Positions 1 to 54,769 of a stretch of DNA of 64,000 bases are shown here, in pieces (within the stretch, counting starts at the first letter, position 1; each line of letters begins with the position of its first letter). A program made the translations under genes and the position numbers. The stretch covers positions 1-64,000 of the IMG/VR virus record IMGVR_UViG_3300040801_005040; one strand, given 5' to 3'. The stretch comes from a virus. The notes under the pieces are model-generated. The model had not been told where the DNA came from. It searched no databases and saw only the letters and a program-made list of their open reading frames with translations.

Positions 1-1752
1 AATACCTGTTTGCATAATGGCAAACAAGTTCAAACGCTGATAGAAATCAGCACTTTTTTTAAGTCCCAGAAAAGCATTTAACGCTTCTCTTTCATTGGGA
101 GATTTAAATACACGATATGCTTCATCAATAATTTCTTTATCTTCTGCAGAATCCCTTTTTGAAATAGGTTTAAGCGCATCTAATCCTCCTTCCTGTTCAT
201 TTATTACAGGTAAAAGAGCATTTAATAGAGGCATTCCATCAAATTCTATAGGAGTAAATAATTCAATTATTTGATTTTCAAGATCAAGTGTATTATTTAA
301 TGGCGCAGTTGCCCATTCTTTTATTAAAGAAAGTGCATCAGAGGGTATATACTTACTTATTGTTTTATCAATTGCTTCTCTTGGAACATAATTTTTTGAT
401 ACATATGTACCTTTATCTGGTTGATATGTATCAAACAAATCAATTCTTCCACCTCTATTAAATACTATTAATATTTGCCCTTGTTTTGAATCAATTTCTA
501 TTTCAAATGATTTTCCTTGCTGTTTAAAATTTGCATCAATTACATTAGGGATGCCTTTTTGCTTTTTTTCAAAAAACTGTTTTAATTTTCGTATTAGTTT
601 AGGTACTGAGTTAGGACCTTTGAAAAGACTATTGACGTAAGTTTGATGGTCAATAGGGCCTTCTTCGTTTAACAGGAACATTATAAAGTCTGCTTCTGTT
701 TTACGAATCATCCTTTCTTGATAGTCAGGATTAAAGCTTAGCTCAGAAAGTGTTTCCTTAAGGGCATCAAGCTCTTCTTTGTAACCAGGAAGTTGAGATA
801 AAAGAAATTCAGATATTCCTGTTGTCCCATTAATTGTATTTTCTCCTTTAAAATCATTTTTAGCGTTCCAGAAAGTTCCAACAAAGCCATCAAACATCCT
901 ATCATAGTTGATGAACATTCCGCTTTTTTCCACTTCTTTACGCAACGCAAGTTGGTTTTCCATCATAGAAAAAGTCTTAAATCCTTGAGTATCAGGAGAT
1001 GTAGACTTAATCATTTTACCAAATATCTGAGCTTCACGTTGGAGCTCCAGAAAAATGTCAAGGGCTTTAAATTGAACTTCTTTATTAGCTCCATTTGTCC
1101 TTATTCCTTCTTCAAGCTCATCTATGGTAAAATCATCGTAGATTTTTTGTTTTCTGTCATCTTCAGTTTTTACCTTATCTTCAATGTCTTTTTCAACAAA
1201 GAAAATCATGTCATCAATTTTCTTGCTATTAAGACCTCTTGGACTAAGAACCTTTGCCACTATTTGAGCTTTTGAGCTCCTTATATCATTTGATACTGAA
1301 TTTGACTGGGAGAATTCATTTATATACTCCTTTATGATAGGTTGATTTACAAAATAGAATATGGTCTTAAAGGGTACTCCCTGACGAACTAGCATTAAAA
1401 TTGTATTAGCTACCTCATTAACTCCGTTAATATCAAGGATATAAGGGTCTTTAGCAACATCTACATAAGCTGTCATAAGCTCTCCAAGCAGTTTACTAAT
1501 GAATACATTTTCTTCATTAGTAATCCTTCCTAAATCATATAGAAATTCAGGTTTAGCAGGGCTCTTTTTTTCTTCTTGTTGTTTTTTAGGAATAACTATA
1601 AGGCTTTGGGTTGAAGGAATACCAAGCTCTTGCTGAATGGCCTGATATTCTTCATTGATAGCTTCAGCTACAGCTTCATTTTCAGAGAATCCTTCGTCCA
1701 GATATTTCTGTGCCCTTTTTTTAAGTTCTCCTTTAAGACAATCTACTGACAT
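1..1752 (-). CDS. C-terminal half of the split crAss-type virion RNA polymerase (partial, at least 584 aa, runs off the window; absent from the ORF track)
   Basis: ATG at 1752 overlaps the stop of ORF 1743..2024. I read the frame codon by codon to position 1 with no stop. It translates MSVDCLKGELKKRAQKYLDEG...YDLGRITNEENVFISKLLGELMTAYVDVAKDPYILDING...LMLVRQGVP...FVNQPIIKEY...QFKALDIFLEL...SPDTQG, motifs that follow the DFDID region in crAss vRNAPs. Confidence 0.85.
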   Translation of the reverse strand, partial: MSVDCLKGELKKRAQKYLDEGFSENEAVAEAINEEYQAIQQELGIPSTQSLIVIPKKQQEEKKSPAKPEFLYDLGRITNEENVFISKLLGELMTAYVDVAKDPYILDINGVNEVANTILMLVRQGVPFKTIFYFVNQPIIKEYINEFSQSNSVSNDIRSSKAQIVAKVLSPRGLNSKKIDDMIFFVEKDIEDKVKTEDDRKQKIYDDFTIDELEEGIRTNGANKEVQFKALDIFLELQREAQIFGKMIKSTSPDTQGFKTFSMMENQLALRKEVEKSGMFINYDRMFDGFVGTFWNAKNDFKGENTINGTTGISEFLLSQLPGYKEELDALKETLSELSFNPDYQERMIRKTEADFIMFLLNEEGPIDHQTYVNSLFKGPNSVPKLIRKLKQFFEKKQKGIPNVIDANFKQQGKSFEIEIDSKQGQILIVFNRGGRIDLFDTYQPDKGTYVSKNYVPREAIDKTISKYIPSDALSLIKEWATAPLNNTLDLENQIIELFTPIEFDGMPLLNALLPVINEQEGGLDALKPISKRDSAEDKEIIDEAYRVFKSPNEREALNAFLGLKKSADFYQRLNLFAIMQTGI

Positions 1753-2024
1753 TTCAAGAATGATTTTATAATTATGAGGATTTCTTCATCCTCCATTTTT
1801 ATTTGTTTGTATATGAGCTCTCTTTTATCCTGCTCTTCACGTATTAATTGACCTATGCTCTTTGCTCCTCCCCCAGAGTAATTAACCCCTCTTTTAGGCT
1901 CCTCTGGTATAACAGGAGGTATTATTACAGTACAATTGTTTAAATAACCATTTGTAGCTATGGGAAGTGTTTTTCCACATCCGCTTAAATATCCATCTGA
2001 CGCTATACCTAAAGTATATCCCAT
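1743..2024 (-). CDS. hypothetical protein (insertion cassette), 93 aa
   Basis: Coupled to both neighbours by overlaps; repeated IA(S/T)xGYL motif, Pro-rich linker, acidic/hydrophobic C-terminus. Confidence 0.7.
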   Translation of the reverse strand: MGYTLGIASDGYLSGCGKTLPIATNGYLNNCTVIIPPVIPEEPKRGVNYSGGGAKSIGQLIREEQDKRELIYKQIKMEDEEILIIIKSFLKCQ

Positions 2025-3412
2025 TACTGTCTGGTTACTATAGATGTAGTTTCACCATCTCCTGATATTGCGAGATCAACAGTACCTGCAACTCTTTGAG
2101 TCTCTGTTATTGTCAAAGGATTAGAACTATCAAGACCTTGTATTTGCCATAGTTCCATTAATTTGGCAATTATTTCATTAAGCGCTGTTCCTGTACTACT
2201 AGGAGTAACGTTATTAGCTGTAAGCTGATTCCATACAGCTTCAGCAATAGCAGTGTTATCTACAACTGCTGTAGCATCAACATTACCATTAAAAATAGTT
2301 AGATTCCTTATACTTAACCCACCATTAATTACACTATCCCCATTAGCTATTAAATTTCCATTTTCATCTGTAAGTCTTCCATTGCCTCTTACTACTAATT
2401 CTCCGGCAGTACAGGTATTTGAATCAATAGATACATCAGCTCCCATCAAATCAAGTGTCATTGAACCACTTGCATTATTAAAATTAGTAACTGCCAATCC
2501 TCCTGCATAACGTCTGAAATTAATACCTGCTGCAGTACTATTACAATTAAGTATAGGTCTAGATGTACCTGCTATACCAGATGAACAGTCAGTGAATATA
2601 ATTGGCATTGTTGCTGAAGCATCTAAAGTAATATTTCCTTTTATTATACAACTTTGAAATATTCCTTGTACTCCTGTAAAAGGTGATGCCTCACCTAAAA
2701 AACATTGATAAAATGCACCGTATCCTGAAATACTACCTCCTATGGAAATTCTTTCAAACCCTGAATCATCAACAAGTAAGTTACTTGCAGTAATGACACC
2801 ATCAGCAGGAGTTTGAGCCGTTATATAATATCTATCTATTCCTACGTTACCTGTTGCAACAAAGGATCCTCCAACATGAAATTTATGTAATCCTTCTCTT
2901 ATGGCAATAGTTATTGCATCAGTTACGTTATTTACTGCATTGGGAGGAGTACCTCTCGGAAACTGAGTTCCTGCTTCACCATCTATGGAATCTACCCAAA
3001 CCATAGCTCCAGTAAAAGATTGGGAGTTAATTGAATCAGAGAAAGTAAGACCTGCTGAGTTGTTAGGTCGAATAGATACTTGGTTTACAACTACTTTATC
3101 TTGTACGTTAGTATTAGCTCCATTGAGTTGTACTGCATATTGTCCATCTTCAAATTCTACAATATAAGGTGATAGAATTACTACCACAGGTGCAAGCTGT
3201 ACTCCTCCTACAGATATTGGAGCAGTATATTGAAATGCTGTAGGTGCCCATGCTCCTTCTGGATCATCTTGTAAATCAGCTAAATCTTGAGCGAAAGTAG
3301 TAAGAGATATTTGTCTGATTTCAAGTCCTGTTTGTGGATCAATAGAAACAAATTGAGTATAAGTCTTTGGGACAAATATAATATTTGTATTATAGTCTAT
3401 TGATATTGCCAT
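2024..3412 (-). CDS. putative virion structural protein with beta-helix-like core (insertion cassette)
   Basis: 462 aa, G/S/T/N-rich, MA- start, TAATG coupling; IAEAVWN motif common in phage tail proteins. Confidence 0.6.
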   Translation of the reverse strand: MAISIDYNTNIIFVPKTYTQFVSIDPQTGLEIRQISLTTFAQDLADLQDDPEGAWAPTAFQYTAPISVGGVQLAPVVVILSPYIVEFEDGQYAVQLNGANTNVQDKVVVNQVSIRPNNSAGLTFSDSINSQSFTGAMVWVDSIDGEAGTQFPRGTPPNAVNNVTDAITIAIREGLHKFHVGGSFVATGNVGIDRYYITAQTPADGVITASNLLVDDSGFERISIGGSISGYGAFYQCFLGEASPFTGVQGIFQSCIIKGNITLDASATMPIIFTDCSSGIAGTSRPILNCNSTAAGINFRRYAGGLAVTNFNNASGSMTLDLMGADVSIDSNTCTAGELVVRGNGRLTDENGNLIANGDSVINGGLSIRNLTIFNGNVDATAVVDNTAIAEAVWNQLTANNVTPSSTGTALNEIIAKLMELWQIQGLDSSNPLTITETQRVAGTVDLAISGDGETTSIVTRQ

Positions 3413-5289
3413 TATTCATCACTTAACATTACTACTGTAATGGTTGTACCTGTATCCTTATTCAAAGTTCCTACAATACCTCCTGGTTTAAGATAAGGTG
3501 AACCTGATGATTTCCTTACAGTACCTGTTACTGGTTGGTTTGCTGTAAAAGTTGCTGTATAACTTGCCTCTCCATTACCATCTGTAGTAGTACTTATAAA
3601 CACAAAGCTACTTACCGGGTTCCCTGTTGCAGGGGTTACTGGAGTACCAGAAACAGTGTAATCATATGTGTTAGTAGTAACATTCGATATGGTTCTGATA
3701 CCATTATATTCATTTTCATTAGCTCCTCGTATCACTACTTTATCTCCATTGGCAAGACCATGGGCATTATGTGTTACTGTAGCAATAGAACCACTGCGAG
3801 TAATACTTACCGAAGCCTGATAAGGTTTTGTAGCACCTGCTGCTGTCTCACATAGCACTCTGGCTGATGATACGTTAGTACCTGATACATCCACCACTTT
3901 TATAGTCAATGTTACAGCTCCTGCAATTACATCTACGTTACCAGTAAAACCAGTTCCTTTTCTTACAGAAGGTACTGTTGCTCCAGAAACTACATTGATT
4001 GTAAATGTAGCACTACTGGTAAAGTTAAGATAAATTGCTTCATTTCCAGTAGAGGTGGTAGTTACATTGCTTCCTGAAGTTCCTGCTACGTATCCTGAGA
4101 GACTATTATCCCAGCTTATTGTGCCAGTACCTACAGAGTTAATTTCTACGGCATGATTAGAACCATCTGAAGTAAATTCATTACCCGTAATATTAGCTAT
4201 ACCAGCGGCTCCTGTAAGTACTGAAGCACTGGAAGTTGAATTCGCTATTGCACAACCTGTAAGTGTAGCTGATCCTGCAGTTATTAATCCACAACCGTTA
4301 AAATTACAACCTATAAGGGTACCATTTGATTGATAAATAGATGTTCCAAAATTATTGAAAGTACATCCATTTAAATTTACAGTAGCATTATCTATCATTT
4401 CAAAATACCCTACACCGTTAGCTGTAGTAGCTGTTGAATTGAATGTAACGTTATTCCAGGTTACTGAAGAACTGGCATTATTTATTTCAATTTTGTTAAA
4501 CGAAGGATAAGTATGAGGACAATCCTCTATAGTTACTGTTACGTTAGAATCTGTAAATGTAACACTGGTTCCTGTAAGACCAAATGACAATAATCCTTTC
4601 CATGAATATCCACCACCTGCTGCAGCAAATAACCCTAGTACATGTCTTCCACTATCAATGGATGTTGATGATGTTCCGGGAGGGGTTCCACCAGCATTAT
4701 AGTCATTGTATTGGGCCATTTCATCGAAAGAGCCACCAGTACCTGTAATACTTAATTCTCCCCTACCATATCGTATTGCATCTACAGCTGCAGGATCACC
4801 TTTGGTTACTTCGTTAAGTGTATTTGGTACACCACCAAAATATCTATATGAACCTCCATTACCCCCTCCAATGGTTCCACTTTCCGTAGCAGTAGGATCA
4901 ATTGCAAAATTTCTCCACCCTCCTAATTTATGGTTACTGTAGTCAGAACCCCCAACCCTAAACCAATCCCAGGCAGAAGTAGATGAGCCTATGCCAATTC
5001 TCCAACCGCTATTGGCGTATGTATTTAAGTTAGTTCCAGAAAAATAAAACAGCCACATAAAAACAACTTCACCCGCAGCAAAGGTTACGTTTGAACCATT
5101 ATCAAATACACAAGAGATTTCTAAGCCAACAGCTTTACCAGTAGTCTGTGAACGGCAGTCAGTACCTTGAATAAAGTTTTCGCCAGAAGCAGCAGGACTA
5201 CCACCTCCGTTATAAGGCGAGGCAAATTCAGTCCAGGTGCCAGATTCAGCAGTAGTTAAAGTTGTTAAATCTGTACTATACGTGGCCAT
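3412..5289 (-). CDS. putative tail fibre/spike-like protein with right-handed beta-helix and FCCH-like beta module (insertion cassette)
   Basis: 625 aa; LNGCTFNNFG/LIGCNFNGCG/LTGCAI beta-helix rungs; ATVTHNAHGLANGDKVVIRGA...YNG..TISNVTTNTY module seen in phage tail proteins. Confidence 0.6.
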   Translation of the reverse strand: MATYSTDLTTLTTAESGTWTEFASPYNGGGSPAASGENFIQGTDCRSQTTGKAVGLEISCVFDNGSNVTFAAGEVVFMWLFYFSGTNLNTYANSGWRIGIGSSTSAWDWFRVGGSDYSNHKLGGWRNFAIDPTATESGTIGGGNGGSYRYFGGVPNTLNEVTKGDPAAVDAIRYGRGELSITGTGGSFDEMAQYNDYNAGGTPPGTSSTSIDSGRHVLGLFAAAGGGYSWKGLLSFGLTGTSVTFTDSNVTVTIEDCPHTYPSFNKIEINNASSSVTWNNVTFNSTATTANGVGYFEMIDNATVNLNGCTFNNFGTSIYQSNGTLIGCNFNGCGLITAGSATLTGCAIANSTSSASVLTGAAGIANITGNEFTSDGSNHAVEINSVGTGTISWDNSLSGYVAGTSGSNVTTTSTGNEAIYLNFTSSATFTINVVSGATVPSVRKGTGFTGNVDVIAGAVTLTIKVVDVSGTNVSSARVLCETAAGATKPYQASVSITRSGSIATVTHNAHGLANGDKVVIRGANENEYNGIRTISNVTTNTYDYTVSGTPVTPATGNPVSSFVFISTTTDGNGEASYTATFTANQPVTGTVRKSSGSPYLKPGGIVGTLNKDTGTTITVVMLSDE

Positions 5290-5713
5290 ATTCTCTTAAT
5301 GAGTTAATATATTCCATCCATATGTCCCTTTTATTATGACCTTTGGCAACTTCTATGTGAGGTTGTCCAAATAGTTTTATCATTACTACTGAGTAGCCTT
5401 GCTTTTTAAAAGCTTCAATTTGATCTCTTGCTATATTTGAGACAGATTTATTTGGAACAACAGTTCCTACAAATATTCTATCAGTCTTTTTAAAGAACAT
5501 GACATCACACTTATCAGGACGCAGTGAAATATTACTAGTTCCGCTTTCAATGTAAGCACATTCAAAATCTTTACATTCCTGTGGGTGATTACCATAAATA
5601 CTACAGCTATTACTAATGCAATATTTACATGCCTCTCCAGCTTTTTTATTAAGCTCTTTGACGACACTTAAAGTACAGCATACAGTACATTCTCCACATT
5701 CTCCCTTTGCCAT
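5276..5713 (-). CDS. YkgJ-like CxxCxxCC cysteine-cluster protein
   Basis: CGECTVCC...CKYC...CSIY..HP..CKDFECAY...RPDKC pattern. Confidence 0.75.
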   Translation of the reverse strand: MAKGECGECTVCCTLSVVKELNKKAGEACKYCISNSCSIYGNHPQECKDFECAYIESGTSNISLRPDKCDVMFFKKTDRIFVGTVVPNKSVSNIARDQIEAFKKQGYSVVMIKLFGQPHIEVAKGHNKRDIWMEYINSLREYGHV

Positions 5714-5725
5714 AATTTAATTAAT

Positions 5726-5749
5726 AAAAAGGGGAGGAATCCTCCCCTT
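5726..5749 (-). terminator. Rho-independent terminator inside the insertion cassette
   Basis: Minus strand AAGGGGAGG-ATT-CCTCCCCTT followed by a T run, immediately after the stop at 5753. Confidence 0.85.
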
Positions 5750-5752
5750 ATA

Positions 5753-7636
5753 TTAAAAGTCATCAATCCTACCTACAGTAGATGAACCTCCACCAGAACC
5801 AACAAGGGCTGTAGTTTCAAAGGTCTTAATTTCTACCCCAGGGTTTGCATTACGTACCCTTAAGAAGAGTGTTCTATCTGTATTGTATACATATGTAACA
5901 GTTTCTGGGTTTCCAGTTGCAACTCTATCTATATAAGTCACAAAAAGGTTATTCCCAGCAGTAGCTGCGTTAACGCCTGAAAAATCAGTAGAAGGAATAG
6001 TAAATGTGCTTCCTGTAAAGGATGTGTAAGGTACTCTTTTATAAGAACCTGAATCCAGCTGTATTCTCAGAGTTCCTGATGGGGAAGGAATATCTGTAGC
6101 AATGGGTGTAGTTACAACAATAGAGGTAATACCTGCACTATTGTAAGTGGCATTGGTTGAATACTGACTAAAGTTAAAATCTCCGCCATTATTGATAGCT
6201 GCAATAACATAATCTCCAGAAACAGTGTTGTTTACTGTGTAAGTTACGTTATTCGGAGGAGTTCTTGTAGTACCAGTAAGGTCAATAGGCCTATCGTTTT
6301 GTCCAAGATCTGCAGACTCAATACCAGAACCAAATGCTCCAAGGATAGCAGCACCAGTAGATGATCCAATAAATGGAAGCTGAATGGTTTGAGAAGTTAC
6401 AGTTATATTAACCAGACAGGTTGCACCAGATGTGATACCTTCAATACTTTGGTTATTAGCTGGAGCTACACCTGCGAGAAGTTGAATCCAACATTCAGTA
6501 CCAGCAGTGGTAGAATCAATAGCTAAGAGCTGACCCCATCCAGTAATGGTTTCTGCAGTACCAGTTCCAGTACCTATACCAGTAGCAGTAAAGATTGTAC
6601 CAGGGCTAGAGTCAGCTGCTCCAATGGTTGTAAAATCTGTGGTTCCTGTTGTTCTGATAACATATGTGTTACCTATTACAAATGAACCCGCAGTAATATC
6701 TACAGCAGTACCCCAAGTAACCCTTTCTGGTTCAATAAATGTTCCTGTAGGGCTATCAATTTCTACAGAGTGGGTAATACCACGGAAGATATCTCCTGGC
6801 AATCCATAAATATTCTGGTCAACATCTCTGGTATCATTACCCCCACCAATATCACCTACACGGGTTTGAATCCATTTGGCTCTTTCATAGAAGTCATTCT
6901 TGCTTTGAGAACCAATGTTCCACTCAGAGTAAAAAGGATAGTTTGTACCGCCAATATTAATCAGGTTGTATCCTTCTGTAACGTTGGTAATGCTATCCCA
7001 ACTAGCAATAGTGGCTCCTGCTGTCTGGTTGTTGTTATCAGGGTTGGCAGTAAGTGCCAATACGTTGTTACCACGGTTAGTACCACCTCCAATGAAGAAT
7101 TCAGTGTAAGTAGTTCCAAGCTCACGCTGTGTACCAAGCAGACGTCTACCATCAATATCTACTCCATTATCCCTTACTTTAATAAGGAAACGGTGAGTTG
7201 TAGAAGAAGCTGCATCAGAAGTAGCTGCTTTGTGATTAGGATAGTTCCAGAAGTCATCATCAATACGTGCTCCATTCTGGATAACTTGAATTATAGATGA
7301 ATTACCAAACACCTGAATACCATCATAAATAGTAGCCCCATTTGCTTGTGTAATAGATCCATCATAGATGTGTTGCGAAGACGCATCATCAATGTTACAT
7401 CCATTCAACAGCGAGATGTTGGTATCCGCACCACCCCTGTCTGAAGGGGTTTTATCAATGATGGACAGTTCATCATCTCCAGTGTCTTGTTCATCATCAG
7501 CAAGGGCCTGGAGTCCCCTGTGAACTTCAATTGTCGTTGCATAGGTAGCTGCCCCAGTGTGGTCTGCACCAATATAACGAAGATCTAAAGCTCCTCCATT
7601 TCTGGTAATGCTCCAATCTGCTAATACAAATGCCAT
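5753..7636 (-). CDS. putative virion structural/tail protein (insertion cassette)
   Basis: 627 aa, G/T-rich; contains the AGSFVIGNTYVI..GTTDFT.IGA....PGT.FTATG.GTGTGTA module recurrent in phage fibre/baseplate proteins; followed by a strong terminator. Confidence 0.6.
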   Translation of the reverse strand: MAFVLADWSITRNGGALDLRYIGADHTGAATYATTIEVHRGLQALADDEQDTGDDELSIIDKTPSDRGGADTNISLLNGCNIDDASSQHIYDGSITQANGATIYDGIQVFGNSSIIQVIQNGARIDDDFWNYPNHKAATSDAASSTTHRFLIKVRDNGVDIDGRRLLGTQRELGTTYTEFFIGGGTNRGNNVLALTANPDNNNQTAGATIASWDSITNVTEGYNLINIGGTNYPFYSEWNIGSQSKNDFYERAKWIQTRVGDIGGGNDTRDVDQNIYGLPGDIFRGITHSVEIDSPTGTFIEPERVTWGTAVDITAGSFVIGNTYVIRTTGTTDFTTIGAADSSPGTIFTATGIGTGTGTAETITGWGQLLAIDSTTAGTECWIQLLAGVAPANNQSIEGITSGATCLVNITVTSQTIQLPFIGSSTGAAILGAFGSGIESADLGQNDRPIDLTGTTRTPPNNVTYTVNNTVSGDYVIAAINNGGDFNFSQYSTNATYNSAGITSIVVTTPIATDIPSPSGTLRIQLDSGSYKRVPYTSFTGSTFTIPSTDFSGVNAATAGNNLFVTYIDRVATGNPETVTYVYNTDRTLFLRVRNANPGVEIKTFETTALVGSGGGSSTVGRIDDF

Positions 7637-7639
7637 AGT

Positions 7640-7975
7640 TTATAGTATTTTAAATTTTCTTCCCGAATCTTTGACTACATAAATTACCTTCAATTTATCT
7701 TTGTCTTCGTTTTCTGAGAATTGTTTGATTAATAAATTTTCTTCTGATACGTTAACTGTAATATACTCTTTTCTGTTTTCTGCTTTGAATAAAAAGGTTG
7801 AATTGATATGATCATATATACCTTGATATTCAAAATCATTTTGCTCTAACTCTTCTATTACCGCTGAAAATCCACTAAATAATTTAAAGGGCAATTTAAT
7901 TAGAGTGAGATCATCCCCTAAAGAATGAGCTTTAGTTTCAGTGTTAGATTGAGGTTCTTTCTTTTTTCTTGCCAT
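7640..7975 (-). CDS. hypothetical protein (insertion cassette)
   Basis: 111 aa, tightly packed between neighbours. Confidence 0.65.
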   Translation of the reverse strand: MARKKKEPQSNTETKAHSLGDDLTLIKLPFKLFSGFSAVIEELEQNDFEYQGIYDHINSTFLFKAENRKEYITVNVSEENLLIKQFSENEDKDKLKVIYVVKDSGRKFKIL

Positions 7976-7976
7976 C

Positions 7977-8336
7977 TTAAATTGCTTTCGCTTTTACCGT
8001 TTTTATTAACTCGTTATTATCCCTTATTATATCAAATGTCCATTCCTTAGGATCTTCTTCTTTCTGGTATTCATTTACTGTTGCTATCAAAGCTTCAATC
8101 TTCCTTACAATAGCATCTCCCATCGCTTCTACTGCTCTTGGAATAGAATCATCCTTTTCCTTTACAGACAAAGTCTGTAGAATAGTTATCATCGTTTCAA
8201 ACTCAGACTTGTTGTCAGGAATCTCACTTGGTATTGATTTAAGAATTTCATCAAGCTTTAATATAACAGCTTTATGATTCTTTTCTTCCATCAAAGCCTG
8301 GAACTCCATAAGACTGGCTAGCTTTTCCATATACAC
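7977..8336 (-). CDS. hypothetical helical protein (first gene of the insertion cassette)
   Basis: 119 aa, overlaps the RNAP-N stop; C-terminal WTFDIIRDNNELIKTVKA beta-hairpin. Confidence 0.7.
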   Translation of the reverse strand: MYMEKLASLMEFQALMEEKNHKAVILKLDEILKSIPSEIPDNKSEFETMITILQTLSVKEKDDSIPRAVEAMGDAIVRKIEALIATVNEYQKEEDPKEWTFDIIRDNNELIKTVKAKAI

Positions 8337-11300
8337 TTAATTTGCTCTTCAAGTTGCTTAGCTCTTTTTTCAAGCTCTTGTTGCTTTAGGAACCTGGAAG
8401 TACCATCTTCAAAGTTAAGTAACTCTTCCTTAGTGAGAAAATTAAAGTTAATGGTTGGCTTGTTAACCAGTTCACTTAATACTGGTTCAACAGTCTCTTC
8501 TATAATGATAGGTTGGTTAAGTTTAGAAACTCCAAAATAATCATGGAGTGCCCTCATCTTAAGCCCTGCTATTTGAGAAAGAATGTGATTGGTTGAATGT
8601 ACAGCAACCTGACCAACTCCTGCCTTACCAGAAAGGAATTCAATCATTTTGTCAATGTTCTTGCTTGGCAGGAATATGTCAGACCAATTTTCTTCTACCT
8701 CATCTCCCCGAAGTTCCCTGATTTCTTCTACAATAGATTTAATGTTTTCAGTGCCAAGCGGAGTAAGAAGCTGTTTCCAGTTTGAAGGATGCAATGTAAG
8801 GGCAATTTCATTTTCAAGGGCTTTGTTCTGAAGCTGTGCATCAGAAAGTTTTGAAATTTCACCTTTAGGGGTTATATAATCCGTTTCAATTGACTTTTTT
8901 AGTGATCCAAGAATTTCTTTGTACTGTCTATTATATATTTCCCTGTTCCTATCATTTATCAGGCTTTCTGGTTCTACTTGCAGAATTCCTTCTACAAACC
9001 ATTTTTTCAATGTTTCAATATCTTGCTCAGCATAATTCTCGCCAATCCCTTCTGCTTTAAGTGCACGTATGATTGGACCAGGATTATCTTTAAAAATAGC
9101 ATTCGTAAACTTAAAAGCTTCTTTACTTGACGGGAGGATTACAGGGGTGTATGTATTTAATTTATCAATATCAAAGTCAGATCCTGTCTTTACTACAAGA
9201 GCTTTAGGTACTATAACCATACTACCCATATAAGGAGGATAGAAAGCTTTTACCTTACCAACGTCAGAAGAAGAAGATTCAGAGTTAGGAATACGAAAAC
9301 CTACAAAAAGGGTCATTTTTGTAAGATTGGTTTCTACTCCAGTCTGCTCATATCTTTTGTTATCTTCAGCAATACGTTCATTGAAAGCATCAAGTGCAGC
9401 TTTAGTAACCCCTTTTCCATTGTTGTACGTTACACTTACATAATCCATAAGTGATTTAGGCAAAGGAGAATAAACCTCCATTGGAAGCATTCTTGACTTA
9501 TCTATTTTTCCATTTTTATCTCTGGCATAACGATAAAATTTAAGGTCATGGCGAGAGACCCCACCAGGCATTTCAAACCCTGTATTAGACATCTGAGCAA
9601 GAGAAACCCCATGTCTTTTTTGACGAATTACACCATTGCGCATTTTCGCCATTATAAATTGCTCTACCCTTGCTTTGTTGGGAAGTGCATCGAGATAAGG
9701 AATATCTTCTTCTATGAGAAGTTTCAAGGCAAGCAATTCATTTGAAGTGAATCCCTGAAGTTTTGCCATGGAACTAATACTCTCAATGAAAGTTTTTACC
9801 CTTTGATCTCTGTTTTTTTCATTAAATCCAAGTTTGTTTTTAAGTTTAGCATAAGCCCTGCGAATTTTTTCTTTCTGAATCTCTTGATATTCATCAATAA
9901 TAGTTTTTGCAGAAGGATCTTTCAGCACTCCATTCTCATAGTAATTGGAGAGATTTAACTTTCTTTTCTGTGTAGATTCAGTTTCTTCATTCTTAAGCTC
10001 TTTACGAATCTTTAGTTGATTTCCAATATCCTTATAGTGTATTTCGTCAACACTTTCAGAGGTTATTTTAAGTTCATTTAAAGAGTGAAGGGGTTTTCCT
10101 TTTGCATCTGCTTTATGTCCAAACTTAGCAGCTGATTCAAAAAATGCCATTCCAACTCCATTAGATAGCATTTCTCGGTTCAAATTATCCAGAACAGAAC
10201 CTTCTTTAAACAACCCAGGAATAAGAGGCATGAATGCAAACTTTCTACCACCTATGACATTAACCAAAGGAAGTTCAAGCTTACCTACATACTGCGATTT
10301 ATCAGGGATGATTCTATTCAGATATTTTTCTTCAATTATAAAGTCTTTCCCAGATGTTACTTTTTGGTAAATCTCTTCATCTATAGGCTCCCATTCTGAG
10401 TATCGAATTTTCATAATTCGATATTCATCGTATGTAATTAATGCAAAACCATCAGCTTCATTTATTTCTGAGTAAAGTTTTGTATCACCTAATTGATCTT
10501 TTATAAGCGACACTTCTTCTTCACTGAAATCATTGATGTCACTGATAATGTCCTGTAACGTAATTGTTTTAATTACAGGGCTTGACATGTCTCTGGAATA
10601 CCCATATTTCTTTTCAAGATTGCTTTCCAAAGTTCCAAGAAACTCATTTATTTCATTATCTGTACGAGTTGCTTCCTTAGTGGAATTCAACATACTCATA
10701 CGCTTAAAGAAATTAGCAGGCTTGCCGTACAAAAGAGGGTCTCCAGTAAAGAGTTTGGTTATTTCAATATTTCCTATGTAAGCATTGATAGCATAGTTGG
10801 CAACTACATTTTCAAAGCTTCCATACAATTTAGTAAGACTTTCAACATCTGACTTTTGAATTTTTTGTTTGGAAATATATTCTTTTTCCGTTTCGATTAT
10901 TTCGTTTATCTTTTTGTCAAGAAACTTATCTACAGTTGGATTATCTTTTAATTGCTCAATTGTCATTTGAGAAAGATCCTTTGTAGAAAGTAGATTAGTG
11001 CCATCTTTAAGTGTAAATACCCTTGTTGCATTTGGAGATAGATATAGATTCTTTATTCCTGATAATGGATAAAGTTCATTAGCATCTAACTCAGCCCTTA
11101 AATGACTAAGTAAATAAAGTTTGGCGTTTGCGAAGTTTTTTTCATCGAAATCTATATTGGCAAACAATCCCCTTTTGTTGGTTCTTCCTTCTATTGAAAA
11201 AACATTTTCAATTTTTCTATCTGCTGCCCTTAAGAAATGATATTTTCCTTCCTGTAACGTATGATATATACGTTGAATAGTAAGGTCTTTTCTGTTTAAG

Positions 11301-12952
11301 TCTGATGTTTCACTTGAATTTCCACTATCGGAATTTTTCATTCCAGATGCTATTTCAATTACAAGTTTTTCTCCTTCAATAATATAACTTACAAGTGTGG
11401 AGCTTGCTGTATAAGGATCACTTTCAAATTCCGGGAATTCTTCAAGTAGCGCTTTTTTATTATCTGAAAGACTATTAATCCTTTTTACTTTATTTGAAAG
11501 ATATGTGTTTAAGCTTATTCCATATACCAGCTTGTTATTTATATTGTAATGCTGAAGTTCTATTGTATTTGGATCATTTAAAACATAATGAGATGCAAGT
11601 TTAAGTAGACGTGCCCTTACATCAAACTTACCTGTTTTTCTGGAATAAATGGATTTTAATTCTTCTAAATTCGGAATTCCCCTTTTTTGTATTTCTTCTA
11701 CAATTTCATCTGGGAAAACAGCATAATTTTTTACATCAATGCCTATTGCTTTTAGGAAAGCTGCTTTAGATAATTTTCTTATCTGTTCTGCAGTATAAGG
11801 CAATCCTTTTAATTTTAACAATCCAAAATTAGCCTCCCATTCTGCCAGCTTTACGTTAGATGCTTTATCAAGATTTTCATTGATTATCTTCCAAACCCCA
11901 TCTTCTTTTACATCAAGGGTATATTCATATTCTGTTTTGTCAAACTGATTTACAAAAAGACTGCGAAGCCTTTGTTCCTTTACTGCAATTTCAGGGTTTG
12001 TATCATAAGCAAATACTTTTTTTCCAAAATTTAACTGGTCAATCAGTTGAGCCATGTGAGGAAATGCCGCTTCTTTTTGTTGAAGCAATAGTGTATACAA
12101 ATCAATATCCCCGGGATATTTTGCCAGTGTTTGATGTATCATATTAAATGTTTTATGATAATCAACAAGCTTTGGAAACCCTAATTGATTTACTTCACCC
12201 GGCACTTTTAATGATGCTATCATCATCTTAATTGCCTTAGGTGCATTGTCAATACTGCTAAATTCATTTGCTGATTTATTAAATGCAGTATCTTTTGTAG
12301 CTTTTTCCTCTACTTCTTCAAGACTTTCATTAAGCATGCTTTCACCATCTTCAATAGAATCAAAAGTGAGATTCATTGTTGATTTCAAGTGAATGTTATA
12401 TGCTTCTATAAAAAACTCTTCGTTGTTTCGTATCTCAGACAGAATATCCATTGCACGACCTGAAAAGCTAGTTTCTCCATATTTATCAATATCTTCCAGA
12501 ATAGTTTTTTCCAGGAAGTTTGTCATCTTTTTAAAGATGTTATTGGTAATATTAGAGAGCTGTGCAGTTCCATCCTGAATATCAACAAAGGACATTCCTT
12601 TTTTCTCAGCAAGTACCTCAGGAAAAAATCCCGTCATACCCTGAGCAATTGAGGTAAACTCATTTGCAGTTAGCTCAATCTTATTTGTTATAAAGGTTTT
12701 TTGAGTTTCAACACGATTTAAAATGTGTTTTCTCCATGCCAGATACTCATCAATTACAGGCTCTCCCTGATGAGTTTTTTCAAAATCCCTACCAGAAAGC
12801 CAATTAGGAAATGAATCTTTACTAAAACCTTCTCCTTTTATAACAGTATCGTATATATAATCAGCCTTTTGCTTATACTTTTTTTGAAGGTCTTTATAAA
12901 GAACACTGTCTTCTTTACTTACACTTGTATCAAATAAATTTGCACAATTCAT
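8318..12952 (-). CDS. virion-packaged RNA polymerase, N-terminal catalytic part (double-psi beta-barrel, phi14:2 gp66-like)
   Basis: GSDFDIDK at 9161-9184; also FTGDP..Y....FFKR, NEADG, FESAAKFG, TQKRKL, GFRIP and GKAGVGQVA...NH; lies downstream of the muzzle and cargo genes. Confidence 0.93.
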   Translation of the reverse strand: MNCANLFDTSVSKEDSVLYKDLQKKYKQKADYIYDTVIKGEGFSKDSFPNWLSGRDFEKTHQGEPVIDEYLAWRKHILNRVETQKTFITNKIELTANEFTSIAQGMTGFFPEVLAEKKGMSFVDIQDGTAQLSNITNNIFKKMTNFLEKTILEDIDKYGETSFSGRAMDILSEIRNNEEFFIEAYNIHLKSTMNLTFDSIEDGESMLNESLEEVEEKATKDTAFNKSANEFSSIDNAPKAIKMMIASLKVPGEVNQLGFPKLVDYHKTFNMIHQTLAKYPGDIDLYTLLLQQKEAAFPHMAQLIDQLNFGKKVFAYDTNPEIAVKEQRLRSLFVNQFDKTEYEYTLDVKEDGVWKIINENLDKASNVKLAEWEANFGLLKLKGLPYTAEQIRKLSKAAFLKAIGIDVKNYAVFPDEIVEEIQKRGIPNLEELKSIYSRKTGKFDVRARLLKLASHYVLNDPNTIELQHYNINNKLVYGISLNTYLSNKVKRINSLSDNKKALLEEFPEFESDPYTASSTLVSYIIEGEKLVIEIASGMKNSDSGNSSETSDLNRKDLTIQRIYHTLQEGKYHFLRAADRKIENVFSIEGRTNKRGLFANIDFDEKNFANAKLYLLSHLRAELDANELYPLSGIKNLYLSPNATRVFTLKDGTNLLSTKDLSQMTIEQLKDNPTVDKFLDKKINEIIETEKEYISKQKIQKSDVESLTKLYGSFENVVANYAINAYIGNIEITKLFTGDPLLYGKPANFFKRMSMLNSTKEATRTDNEINEFLGTLESNLEKKYGYSRDMSSPVIKTITLQDIISDINDFSEEEVSLIKDQLGDTKLYSEINEADGFALITYDEYRIMKIRYSEWEPIDEEIYQKVTSGKDFIIEEKYLNRIIPDKSQYVGKLELPLVNVIGGRKFAFMPLIPGLFKEGSVLDNLNREMLSNGVGMAFFESAAKFGHKADAKGKPLHSLNELKITSESVDEIHYKDIGNQLKIRKELKNEETESTQKRKLNLSNYYENGVLKDPSAKTIIDEYQEIQKEKIRRAYAKLKNKLGFNEKNRDQRVKTFIESISSMAKLQGFTSNELLALKLLIEEDIPYLDALPNKARVEQFIMAKMRNGVIRQKRHGVSLAQMSNTGFEMPGGVSRHDLKFYRYARDKNGKIDKSRMLPMEVYSPLPKSLMDYVSVTYNNGKGVTKAALDAFNERIAEDNKRYEQTGVETNLTKMTLFVGFRIPNSESSSSDVGKVKAFYPPYMGSMVIVPKALVVKTGSDFDIDKLNTYTPVILPSSKEAFKFTNAIFKDNPGPIIRALKAEGIGENYAEQDIETLKKWFVEGILQVEPESLINDRNREIYNRQYKEILGSLKKSIETDYITPKGEISKLSDAQLQNKALENEIALTLHPSNWKQLLTPLGTENIKSIVEEIRELRGDEVEENWSDIFLPSKNIDKMIEFLSGKAGVGQVAVHSTNHILSQIAGLKMRALHDYFGVSKLNQPIIIEETVEPVLSELVNKPTINFNFLTKEELLNFEDGTSRFLKQQELEKRAKQLEEQIKCIWKS

Positions 12953-15900
12953 TATCTTCCTAATTTTCGTTTAGTACTGAACATAGGGCCAGCACACTGT
13001 TGTTGTTCTTCAGTAGGTTGTTGAGCAGGTTGTTCACTAGTGGTTACAGCGCTTTCTGCTAAAGCTGCTTTCATTTCATCAGATATTGCATCAAGATCAT
13101 CTGACTTTTTAGCATAAGCTGCAAGTGAAGGAGCTGCATCCTCTACACTTTTTGGTTTCTCAGCTTGTGTTTTCTTTGCAAAAGTAGCAAGGCTTAATCC
13201 TGCATTTGGCGCAGGACGAGAAGCTGTAGGTTCTTTTTCTGTTTGTACTGGCTTAGGAGGAGTTGGACCATCTAACCTTTTTCCAAATTCTGCATATTGG
13301 TTTACAAACTGAGGGAGCCTTTGGTTTTCTGAGGGAGGTTTAACCTCAGTGTAAAGATATTTATCAATTACATATTCTTGATAATTAGGCACCATTTTAT
13401 ATTCCACTACAGGAGAATTAAGGGTTTTATCAAAATACCATCCCGTAGGAACAGGCATTTTATCTGTCATTCTGCTACCCCTGTCTATAACGTTAAGATA
13501 CTTATAATTTAGGAAATTTACGAGGCTTGCCAAAGTAGGATCATTGGAAGTTTTGACTCCTCCTTTTTCATTAAATAATGCATTTACGGGAAAGTCAGTT
13601 ACAATTGGATCACCTTTAGCATTTAAGCCTTGCGTAAAGCGTATGAACTTTTCTTTTGTCTTACGGCTTGTCCACAGGGATATATTCCATGCTTTGTTTG
13701 CCTCTTTTGTATTCCAGCTAATAAAATGATCTAAGATACCCGGATCTCCTTTATGTCCAAATAGAGGTATAGTATATTTAACTTTACCATCTTTCCCGGG
13801 TTTCATTGGAAAATCAATATTGTAATTGGGCCCAATGTACTTTGCCATCGCCAGGAAGGAAATGATAGTGTTGAGCATCTTAGTCCTTTCCCCTTGAGTT
13901 AAAGAGCCGATTGTTCTATTGAGTACCCTTTGAAGCTGTCCATTTTCAAGTTCAGCATATACCTTACCATCTTCAAGACCAATTATTTTTTTTCCAATCC
14001 TTTTACTGGTATCAGCAATTACAAGATTTTTAACGTTAAACACTGAAGTTATCTTATTTTTACTATCTCCTATGTTTTCAGCAGGAACAAATCCCCTTGA
14101 CACATGGTCTACACCAAAATATATTTGCTCTCCCCTGTTTGCTGCACTTAACAAAGAATCTCTCCAGTCAGTATAATCCCTTTCAATTTTATTTATGACT
14201 GCTTCTCTGGCATCTTCATATGATGTATAAGAAGCATTATCAAGAACATAAGGTTTTTCAGCAGAAATGCTTTTCCTTCTTTTTTCCAGAAGGATCATGT
14301 TCTCATTATCACTTAATCTTAATGTTTGCGTACCATCTGCTCTAAAATAGGTTTCTGGTTTTGCAACACCTGCAAATACAGGTTCCCCATTTTCACCAGT
14401 TACAACCTCTCCATTTTTATATAAGATTGTATAGAGTGCATCTGTGTCTTCTACTGGAGGCACTACATTGAATGCACTTAATTGCTGGTTATTAACTACA
14501 CGAAGGGAATAATTAGACAGCTCGCTAAGATTGATATTCATCATTGCTTTGCTCCACTGTACTGCTTGCGCTAATTTTTTTGGATTAGGTTGGACATCCT
14601 TCATTGTAGCATCAGTATACACATTTGTAATGGTAGACTGAGGGTTTGCTTTAAGTGGCCCAGAACCTATTGGGGAAATGGAACTAGTTCCATCTTGTTC
14701 TATCCTTCTTTTTTCTGCCCTGTTTTGTTTTTTGGGAAAAGACACTAATTCTCCTAAACGCTCTTTTCTTTCAATAAGACGTTGCTTTCCAATTATATAT
14801 TGAAGAGTTTCCTTTTCTATTATATAATCGTTGATTTTCTGACGCTTTTTATTAAGCTCTTTAAGCCTCTTGGAAACAGCTAAGAATTCTTGTCTGTACT
14901 CAATCAAATCAGCTGCAATTGGATTCATTGCATCTGTAAGAGTACGCAGAAAATCTCCACGTATTTCAGGATCAAACATTAAAATACTTAAGTCTGCAAG
15001 ATCCAACAGGTTTTTTACATAACCTCTTGGAAAGCTATCTCTTGTAAAATCTGCAAGTTCAGGATAGTTTTCAAGGATAAATGGCCTGTTGGCTTGTATA
15101 AACTTGAGGATTCTCTCAATATCCCCGTTTCTAATAGCATCCTTAAATTCAAATCTTTGCTCAAGCATTTCGCTTAGCTGATTGATAATATCTTGAAGGT
15201 CTTCCTGCTGTTGCTCAAGCTCGGCTATTTGAAGCACTGTACTTTTTTGTAAAGCATCAAGGTTTTCAAACTTTATGGGGAACTCCCCATCCTTCATTTC
15301 TTGCTCAAGTGCTTTTAAACGAAGGGTAAAGATTTGTTGGTAGCCTTCTTCAATTCCCTGTAAAAGTTCAGCTTGTATGTCAATAAGCAATTGAATGCTC
15401 TGCTCAATCCTTTCAAGCTCAAGATATCTGCTTTCAAGATCATTTGCTATTTTGGCTCTTTCTTCCTCAAGGACTGCAAGATCACGCACTATGCTTGATA
15501 CAGGAATTTCATCCTGTGTTAGCCAATACTGAATCTCTGCCTCAACCTGACGCATTTTTTCAGCCCTTTCAGACATTTCCTCTTCAAGCCTTTCTCTTTT
15601 ACCTTGATAGAGGAGCTGCATTTCCAGGATTCTCTCTTCGTATTGCCTTGCTCTTTCTTCTGCGCGATTTATTTTACGCCAATTCTTATATTCTTTGGCA
15701 GACAGTATTGAGTTTTCATCTAGCCCTCTGGATTTAAGTTCTTCCAGAGTAAGATCTACGGCATTTTCAAAATCATATTGTCCTTGCTCAGTCATTGGGA
15801 TAATCATATACTTTTGATTATCCTCCTGGTCAGCTACTTTTTTGATAGCATACTTGTTACCATCTTTATCTTGCAAGGCAACTCCAACATCCTCCATCCC

Positions 15901-54160: not shown

Positions 54161-54769
54161 CTAAAACAGTATAATGTTTCCTCCAAGCCATAATGTACTA
54201 TTGGTGTCATATCCTACTGTACCCCTAAATTTATTTATCCGTATTCCAAGTTCAGGCATAACTATTGGTGTATTATCAAGACCATTATCAGGAATCCCCA
54301 CTTTCATTCCAAAATCAATTGAGAATATGTCTTTAGGTACTTCCATCTCTACTTTCACCTTATCTTTTATCAGAAAGGGCTTAAGCTTATAGCTTGATCT
54401 TAATTCAAGAAGATCACCTCTGGTTTTTGCGTAAACATCAATTGTCTGTACCGTATCTTCAAATGTTTCTTTATACTCTTTAATGGTAGCTAATTCCTTT
54501 ACCATACTATCTTTAGCTATTGAGTCTTTTAAAGAGAGGTATTCCTTGTACCATTTATCTGTAAAATTCTTTTTTGGTTTTGGCAAAGGAGCTGGATTAA
54601 AAACAGGTGTAAAATCATTTTGTAACTGAGGCGCTGTTATTAATACAGGTACTCTTTTTGTAATTACCTCTGGTTTTTCATTACACGCATCAATATATAG
54701 CAGAATGAATATTAATGCTATTAAGTGAGGTAGATAAGTATGGAAAAGATGTTTTGCTATATCCTTCAT
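54161..54769 (-). CDS. membrane-anchored protein with C-terminal amphipathic beta strands (spanin candidate)
   Basis: N-terminal hydrophobic helix ending IDAC; Pro-rich linker; C-terminal strands ending in Phe. Confidence 0.5.
   Translation of the reverse strand: MKDIAKHLFHTYLPHLIALIFILLYIDACNEKPEVITKRVPVLITAPQLQNDFTPVFNPAPLPKPKKNFTDKWYKEYLSLKDSIAKDSMVKELATIKEYKETFEDTVQTIDVYAKTRGDLLELRSSYKLKPFLIKDKVKVEMEVPKDIFSIDFGMKVGIPDNGLDNTPIVMPELGIRINKFRGTVGYDTNSTLWLGGNIILF

Follow-up and report, generated by a model that had tools for sequence, protein, structure and literature searches.

Probable insertional fission of a crAss-type virion RNA polymerase between its bridge helix and trigger loop

Can the gene for a virion RNA polymerase (vRNAP) be interrupted by a block of unrelated genes between two elements of its active site, and can the two products still serve as one enzyme? 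This question is posed by the virus record IMGVR_UViG_3300040801_005040, a single 101,884-bp contig whose first 64 kb, beginning at the contig start, we refer to as the window; the case comprises this one metagenomic contig. Here the two parts of a polymerase of the type of phage phi14:2 gp66 are encoded on either side of seven further open reading frames (ORFs). An earlier reading of the window from its letters alone (the original prediction) had proposed that a multi-gene insertion cut the gene and supplied in-frame ends to both halves. Our analysis places the cut between the bridge helix and the trigger loop, and makes it probable that the halves are packaged together and used as one two-chain enzyme.

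The upstream part of the split gene, the N-half (P0002; coordinates of all features are given in Table 1), is homologous to gp66, the match starting near the N-terminus and reaching as far as the bridge helix ends. A phmmer search aligned it to phi14:2 gp66 (PDB 6VR4) with an E-value of 1.9e-17 over gp66 residues 869-1578, a span running through the catalytic DFDID motif, which occupies residues 1361-1365 of gp66 (gp66 structure paper). By homology, the N-half is the N-terminal part of a gp66-type virion RNA polymerase carrying the DFDID motif and the bridge helix, the identity that the original prediction had given it. Both of the motifs named there for this ORF, GSDFDIDK and GKAGVGQVAVHSTNH, lie where they had been placed, and the ORF stops 88 aa after the latter, close to the 90 or so first counted.

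The minus-strand frame of the C-half (P0001) is open over 584 codons to base 1 and contains the ISK...KDP motif, both as originally described, and it aligns to the C-terminal part of giant crAss-like proteins. A direct phmmer search of the C-half against the PDB returned nothing; its homology to gp66 emerged through a profile of nine contiguous relatives, which we aligned to gp66 with a local hhalign run. This profile places GKAGVGQVAVH.TNH in the gp66 bridge helix (residues 1529-1559) and ISxLL..AYVDxAKDPY in the trigger loop (residues 1598-1636; both ranges from the gp66 structure paper). Because one motif falls in each element, the cut is located by this alignment in the linker between bridge helix and trigger loop, two elements of the active site, and the C-half is on the same evidence the continuation of the polymerase chain with its trigger loop. 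The earlier view that the two motifs represent successive parts of one chain holds for phi14:2.

Coverage of single-chain relatives by the two halves is collinear and non-overlapping, as had been predicted. With tblastn, residues 1-1496 of the database protein P0009 align to 12952-8531 and residues 1502-1900 to 1536-1; the search gave these two segments only, and no second polymerase copy was found in the genome, in line with the original prediction, which relied on there being no intact vRNAP elsewhere. The chain of cr125_1, with TAG read as Q, is likewise covered by the N-half over residues 2547-3690 and by the C-half over residues 3698-4081. On the N-half the junction lies at K1477 and on the C-half at K67, where the halves had been expected to meet. 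Beyond it the N-half reads 67 new codons of the insert before its TAG stop (8318-8320), which is overlapped by the start of c1, the first insert gene, and the ATG of the C-half lies 66 new codons upstream of the junction and overlaps the TAG stop of c7, the last (1743-1745); the new in-frame stop and the new coupled in-frame start had both been foreseen. The stop of the N-half and the start at 1752 lie 6.6 kb apart, the distance from DFDID to the trigger loop is 7.7 kb, and the catalytic elements are not in one polypeptide.

We found no homologue of the 67-aa tail of the N-half. In an AlphaFold2 model of C-half residues 1-584 (pLDDT 64) the new head forms two helices (residues 3-19 and 24-43), followed by a disordered Lys/Glu/Pro linker (44-76) and then by the trigger-loop helices; a Foldseek search of this model against the PDB gave no match at E ≤0.001. 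The idea that tail and head are decayed copies of neighbouring parts of the polymerase was rejected as not significant; across all such comparisons, including those of tail with head and with the insert of P0017 described below, the highest z was 3.1, at a position that did not match. Each of the two junctions carries a copy of a 6-bp direct repeat, CTAAAC, in phase, and removal of one copy together with the interval would yield ...HDYFGVSK/PEFLYDLGRI...; we rejected this repeat as evidence of mechanism since 28% of shuffles give an in-phase 6-mer in windows of equal size. No longer direct or inverted repeats were found around the insert.

The C-half gene resumes at the opposite end of the contig (101883..96913) for 1656 more codons, in a frame shifted by one base, which gives a full C-half of about 2244 aa fused to a gp65 homologue (distal part versus phi14:2 gp65: E 2e-5, collinear). 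The original prediction was right that the frame stays open for at least 584 codons, and overlooked this full extent, the gp65 fusion and the cut at the contig end. Relatives have about four conserved residues (NNSP) at the joint that the contig lacks, so linearisation of the contig probably removed around 11 nt. If the contig sequence is instead complete as given, the C-half gene has a second break, with ORFs of 585 aa and 1650 aa.

Consideration of related genomes gives insight into the direction of the change. All twelve database protein relatives (37-62% identity; P0003 and P0006 are the closest) are contiguous at the position of the break or cut only by a contig end, and on contig SPKZ01018485.1 (L092) a single ORF of at least 3261 aa comprises N-half, C-half and gp65-like protein, with the convergent arm directly after it. 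In 70 of 81 viral and 73 of 80 metagenome loci, a single frame contains both DFDID and the trigger loop at a spacing of 492-1437 nt; the remaining loci represent contig-end cuts, motif variants or intron-like inserts. In-frame stops occur in only 9 of 115 distinct DFDID-to-trigger-loop segments; all are TAG, and the segments appear to come from phages that read TAG as a residue. They include that of cr125_1, whose giant ORF is open only when TAG is read in this way. Because the close relatives are contiguous, these comparisons support a derived split and an ancestor with a single gene, and the proposal that an insertion cut a contiguous gene is borne out by the relatives that lack the insert. 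No close relatives were obtained from viral contigs with P0001 or P0003 as query, or from metagenome contigs with P0001. The linker tolerates insertions, since P0017 has a 200-aa in-frame insert at the same place (residues ~1540-1740); a relationship of the tail and head to this insert or to each other was considered and dropped, as there was no significant similarity.

Other interruptions in this region of the polymerase gene were also seen. An intron-like insert and an insert with a LAGLIDADG-type ORF lie exactly within the DFDID motif in L020 (~6500-7100) and L068 (~9300-10040). P0005, a protein of 705 aa from a 10.9-kb ENA contig, begins only about 16 residues before the bridge-helix motif, and may reflect another natural split, this one shortly before the bridge helix, or truncation by the edge of the contig.

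The polymerase stands where a gp66-type vRNAP is expected. The contig is organised like a crAss-like phage genome, with a long minus-strand late arm that carries the terminase, portal and major head protein genes (PHROG E-values of 1e-93 to 1e-124), terminates in three giant genes and meets the plus-strand arm at about 96.9 kb. The order at its end is a gp67-like gene directly upstream of the polymerase, the gp66 N-part, the insert, and the gp66 C-part fused to the gp65-like sequence, so that the polymerase is located between gp67-like and gp65-like genes.

Table 1. Features of the split polymerase locus and its insert, in window coordinates.
Feature	Positions	Strand	Details
vRNAP C-half, first 584 codons	1..1752	-	trigger loop at residues 85-123, then C-terminal gp66 domains
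ISKLLGELMTAYVDVAKDP (ISK...KDP), trigger-loop motif	1444..1500	-	relatives' profile aligned to gp66
CTAAAC, right copy of 6-bp repeat	1551..1556	-	at junction
New 66-aa N-terminal head of C-half (MSVDCLKGELKKRAQKYLDE...)	1555..1752	-	contains Cys5; no homologue
c7, ORFan, 93 aa	1743..2024	-	stop overlaps C-half ATG
c6, 462 aa, candidate beta-helix fibre or spike	2024..3412	-	
c5, 625 aa	3412..5289	-	residues 495-557 match a domain of podovirus tail-spike and tail-assembly proteins
c4, 145 aa, 10 Cys	5276..5713	-	CxxCxxCC-type N-terminus (CGECTVCC...)
Intrinsic-terminator hairpin and T-run	5729..5749	-	between c3 and c4
c3, 627 aa, first gene of conserved module	5753..7636	-	57-83% identical to genes in other crAss-like contigs
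c2, small ORFan, 111 aa	7640..7975	-	
c1, small ORFan, ~117 aa from ATG at 8330	7977..8330	-	start overlaps N-half stop
vRNAP N-half (P0002), 1544 aa	8318..12952	-	phmmer to 6VR4; tblastn of P0009 residues 1-1496; invariant columns; Cys count
New 67-aa C-terminal tail of N-half	8321..8521	-	residues 1478-1544; ends ...ELEKRAKQLEEQIKCIWKS
CTAAAC, left copy of 6-bp in-phase direct repeat	8521..8526	-	at junction; not above chance
GKAGVGQVAVHSTNH, C-terminal half of bridge helix	8585..8629	-	N-half residues 1442-1456; hhalign of relatives' profile to gp66
GSDFDIDK, catalytic Mg-binding DFDID motif	9161..9184	-	N-half residues 1257-1264; aligns to gp66 1359-1366
gp67-like cargo protein, 1764 aa	12952..18246	-	BLASTP to phi14:2 gp67, E 7e-30; Cys count

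The insert of about 6.97 kb consists of seven co-oriented, tightly packed ORFs across 1743-8336 in the bridge-helix/trigger-loop linker. The original prediction called all seven tail-like; the seven ORFs are present, and by evidence only three or four of them resemble tail-fibre genes. Several weak lines speak for this character: the domain match of c5, the beta-helix leads for c6, and ORFs with fibre domains beside the module in relatives. The product of c6 is probably a beta-helix fibre or spike protein, to judge from a weak match to Pfam Pectate_lyase_5 and from Atlas structure neighbours with DUF1565/Beta_helix (TM 0.45-0.54), which serve as a lead only. The cysteine-rich c4 product is probably metal-binding; its gene accompanies the module in L085, L086 and L087, and is absent from L089 and L090. 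An atlas search with c3 gave low-score matches only, its AlphaFold2 model (pLDDT 33) was unusable, and c1, c2 and c7 have no informative homologues.

The core of the insert, c3-c6, is 57-83% identical to tail-fibre-type modules found elsewhere in crAss-like contigs. In L085 and L086 the module stands 3' of the portal gene and a fibre-like ORF, in L089 and L090 it precedes the gene that in the window follows the portal gene, and in L087, whose polymerase is contiguous, it comes directly after the polymerase/gp65 block. The corresponding site after the portal gene is closed in the window, where the portal gene shares 4 nt with the gene that follows it (54766-54769). Identity between the window and L085 is 83% for c3 and 75% for c5 and falls to 57% for terminase and 47% for portal; the comparison with L087 gives 81% for c3 and 27-29% for the gp65-like protein. 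Because the module is more conserved than the terminase, portal and gp65-like genes, these values indicate that c3-c6 moves horizontally between crAss-like phages. The hairpin between c3 and c4 is kept in four relatives (L087:11908-11930, L085:10583-10604 and L089:7655-7682 among the copies), with changes on both arms that preserve the stem, and appears to be a regulatory part of the module. That the insertion was a multi-gene one was read correctly at the outset, and what escaped notice was that a mobile tail-fibre module at other positions in related phages lies at its core.

Several observations suggest that both halves are in use. Apart from the contig joint, about 3,800 codons are free of stops and frameshifts, as the original prediction had observed of the parts that it saw. 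Outside the tail and head, 194 of 212 residues that are invariant in the nine relatives are kept in the N-half and 53 of 61 in the C-half (87-92%). The cysteine pattern is the strongest sign in these sequences that the halves are in use. The giant cargo proteins carry cysteines only at the facing termini of consecutive proteins and lose them where the genes are fused (L092, P0008). In phi14:2 the cysteines of these proteins are C1797 in gp67, the final residue, C3 and C2179 in gp66, and C3 in gp65, with no others; the cargo proteins of L087 follow the same pattern, the fused L092 chain has no cysteine at all, and ten complete relatives have exactly two cysteines each, both terminal. In the window, the sole cysteine of the gp67-like protein is residue 1751, 14 residues from its C-terminus. 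The N-half has only Cys3 (12944-12946) and Cys1540 (8333-8335), the latter in the new tail and five residues from the new end, and Cys5 (1738-1740), in the new head, is the only cysteine in the roughly 2244 residues of the C-half. At 0.61% cysteine in the genome, both new ends would by chance have a cysteine within seven residues with a probability of about 0.002. With their terminal cysteines, helical ends and overlapping starts, the new termini look as if they were shaped by selection.

Taken together, these data lead us to regard as probable an insertional fission of a crAss-type virion RNA polymerase whose halves are co-packaged and refold into one two-chain enzyme; we infer that the two chains act jointly. 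Six points weigh against this. We found this split on a single contig and in no second genome, and its conservation cannot be shown; the tail and head are without significant similarity to each other; and the cysteine argument and its chance estimate were formed after the pattern had been seen. To be expressed, the C-half must rely on read-through or on an unseen promoter, because the conserved terminator stands between it and the N-half. Only 1.75 kb from the junction the contig breaks off within the C-half gene, with a slip of frame, and no read or contig from two runs of one microbial-mat sample spans either junction, these runs having yielded only contigs of 150-350 nt at 100% identity.

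The first and fourth of these points would also fit an insertion that is real but has left the enzyme dead or impaired, the phage being a recent defective variant that depends on co-infection or no longer needs a virion polymerase. A split that no second genome shares, a terminator between the halves and a cut that separates two active-site elements are what such a variant would show. We consider it unlikely, however, given the long run of codons without stops or frameshifts, the retention of 87-92% of the invariant residues and new termini that look selected; in addition, the vRNAP of phi14:2 transcribes the early genes (gp66 structure paper), a role that speaks against its loss.

A slightly less likely explanation, and in our view an improbable one, is an assembly chimera, in which the module came from elsewhere in the phage or from a co-occurring phage and was misplaced into a contiguous polymerase gene. 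The case is a single metagenomic contig, reads could not be placed across its junctions, it breaks with some 11 nt missing 1.75 kb away in the same gene, and related phages carry the same module at other positions. Against this, both junctions fall at one point of the polymerase and in frame, without loss or duplication of sequence, and a scan of 13.5 kb gave no repeat longer than 6 bp shared by the two junctions or by a junction and other sequence. A misjoin would also have to account for 66-67 open codons at each junction in a genome of 35% GC, and for a cysteine at each new end where the rule of the family expects one. The usual site after the portal gene is closed by overlapping genes. One sample contains fragments of N-half, module and C-half, each with 100% identity and all at similarly low depth, a weak argument, and GC3 is alike throughout; it does not distinguish the insert from the surrounding region.

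That the halves are rejoined by splicing, through a giant RNA intron or a protein split intein, is very improbable: intron-like and LAGLIDADG inserts are known from the same gene of other crAss-like phages (L020, L068; PMC7886860), but here no Rfam family was found in 1-13500 even at E up to 1, there is no Hint/intein match in Pfam, the sequence reads without intein features (no nucleophile starting the tail, no HN before the body of the C-half), and the 7-kb interval is made up of seven co-oriented genes with their own terminator.

Insertional fission with joint use of the halves would have proceeded as follows. A segment of 6.97 kb, comprising c3-c6 with their own terminator and the three small ORFans, would have recombined into the bridge-helix/trigger-loop linker of an ancestral single gp66::gp65 gene. 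The N-fragment retains the N-terminal domains, the core homologous to gp66 in which DFDID lies, and the bridge helix; to the C-fragment belong the trigger loop and the C-terminal domains of gp66, followed by the fused gp65-like protein. Both chains would be late products that enter the particle as cargo. Their connection would consist of the new helical tail and head together with a Cys1540-Cys5 disulfide, a bond of the type that has been proposed to join neighbouring cargo proteins in the crassvirus group. The cargo proteins of crAss001 must partly unfold to pass through the tail, and may refold in the cell. After ejection, the chains would refold to a two-chain enzyme akin to the archaeal pair of A', with the bridge helix, and A'', with the trigger loop. 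There is an experimental precedent for working insertion-derived ends in phage Aeh1, where such tails are essential for assembling a split ribonucleotide reductase (PMC3045599). We put forward only tentatively, as something that may well prove wrong, the fuller proposal that a mobile fibre module recreated the archaeal-type split and that the Cys-ended tail and Cys-started head evolved as a compensating disulfide tie in the particle, in keeping with the rule by which this group would link its cargo proteins head to tail.

If this fuller proposal is true, the order of the cargo chains would be set by protein ends rather than by the adjacency of genes, and a two-barrel polymerase could refold from two ejected chains. 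If the chains cooperate at all, the locus is a natural experiment on where a single-chain two-barrel RNA polymerase tolerates cutting, and implies that a polymerase can reach the cell through a phage tail in two pieces. It also allows the disulfide chaining proposed for crassvirus cargo to be tested specifically, as the chained partners are encoded 7 kb apart. The comparisons of the insert show, further, that a tail-fibre module, likely a determinant of host range, moves among distantly related crAss-like phages and occupies at least three genome positions, including one inside an essential gene.

Precedents exist for split RNA polymerases, for genes in pieces and for ORF boundaries that vary within crAss polymerase blocks (PMC7886860, PMC3045599). 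Polymerase genes of crAss-like phages may be fused, split or interrupted (Yutin et al., 2021, PMC7886860), and the cases described, among them the fragmented RNAP ORFs of the Zeta group and the variable ORF boundaries of the transcription block, involve introns, stop codons and frameshifts; unlike in the window, their pieces stay adjacent (PMC7886860). Our search of the literature brought up neither a multi-gene structural module between the halves of a crAss-like polymerase nor a virion polymerase cut in this way between bridge helix and trigger loop with ends that obey the cysteine rule of the cargo. The nrdA-a/mobE/nrdA-b locus of Aeromonas phage Aeh1 (Crona et al., 2011, PMC3045599) is likewise an essential phage enzyme split by inserted DNA, and it shares with the window new C- and N-terminal tails derived from the insertion, a gene that is contiguous in relatives, and tails that are not homologous. 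The Aeh1 insert, however, is a single homing-endonuclease gene, whereas that of the window is a seven-gene structural module in which no ORF has an endonuclease match in Pfam or PHROGs; and the product in the window, unlike the Aeh1 reductase, is a polymerase predicted to be packaged in the virion.

The closest counterpart of the enzyme itself is phi14:2 gp66 (PDB 6VR4), a single-chain two-barrel vRNAP that is alike in its DFDID motif, bridge helix, trigger loop and gene order, and phi14:2 shares with the window proteins the restriction of cysteines to the termini. In contrast to phi14:2, the chain in the window is cut, seven unrelated genes stand between the halves, and the C-part is fused to the gp65 homologue. 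The same topological break separates A' and A'' (Rpo1N and Rpo1C) of the largest subunit of archaeal RNA polymerase, where the bridge helix lies in A' and the trigger loop in A'' (PMC2776397, PMC3737540); in Methanocaldococcus jannaschii the bridge helix (L814-R830) is near the C-terminus of A' and the base helices of the trigger loop are at A'' 72 and 98 (PMC2776397). In the window the bridge helix ends 88 residues before the terminus of the N-half, and the trigger loop occupies residues 85-123 of the C-half. This is an analogy and not common descent, as the archaeal enzyme belongs to the multisubunit cellular lineage and that of the window to the lineage of single-chain phage RNA polymerases. 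The archaeal A' and A'' genes are adjacent, and their split is ancient and universal in archaea. The split in the window, by comparison, is recent, has been observed once, and holds an insert of 7 kb.

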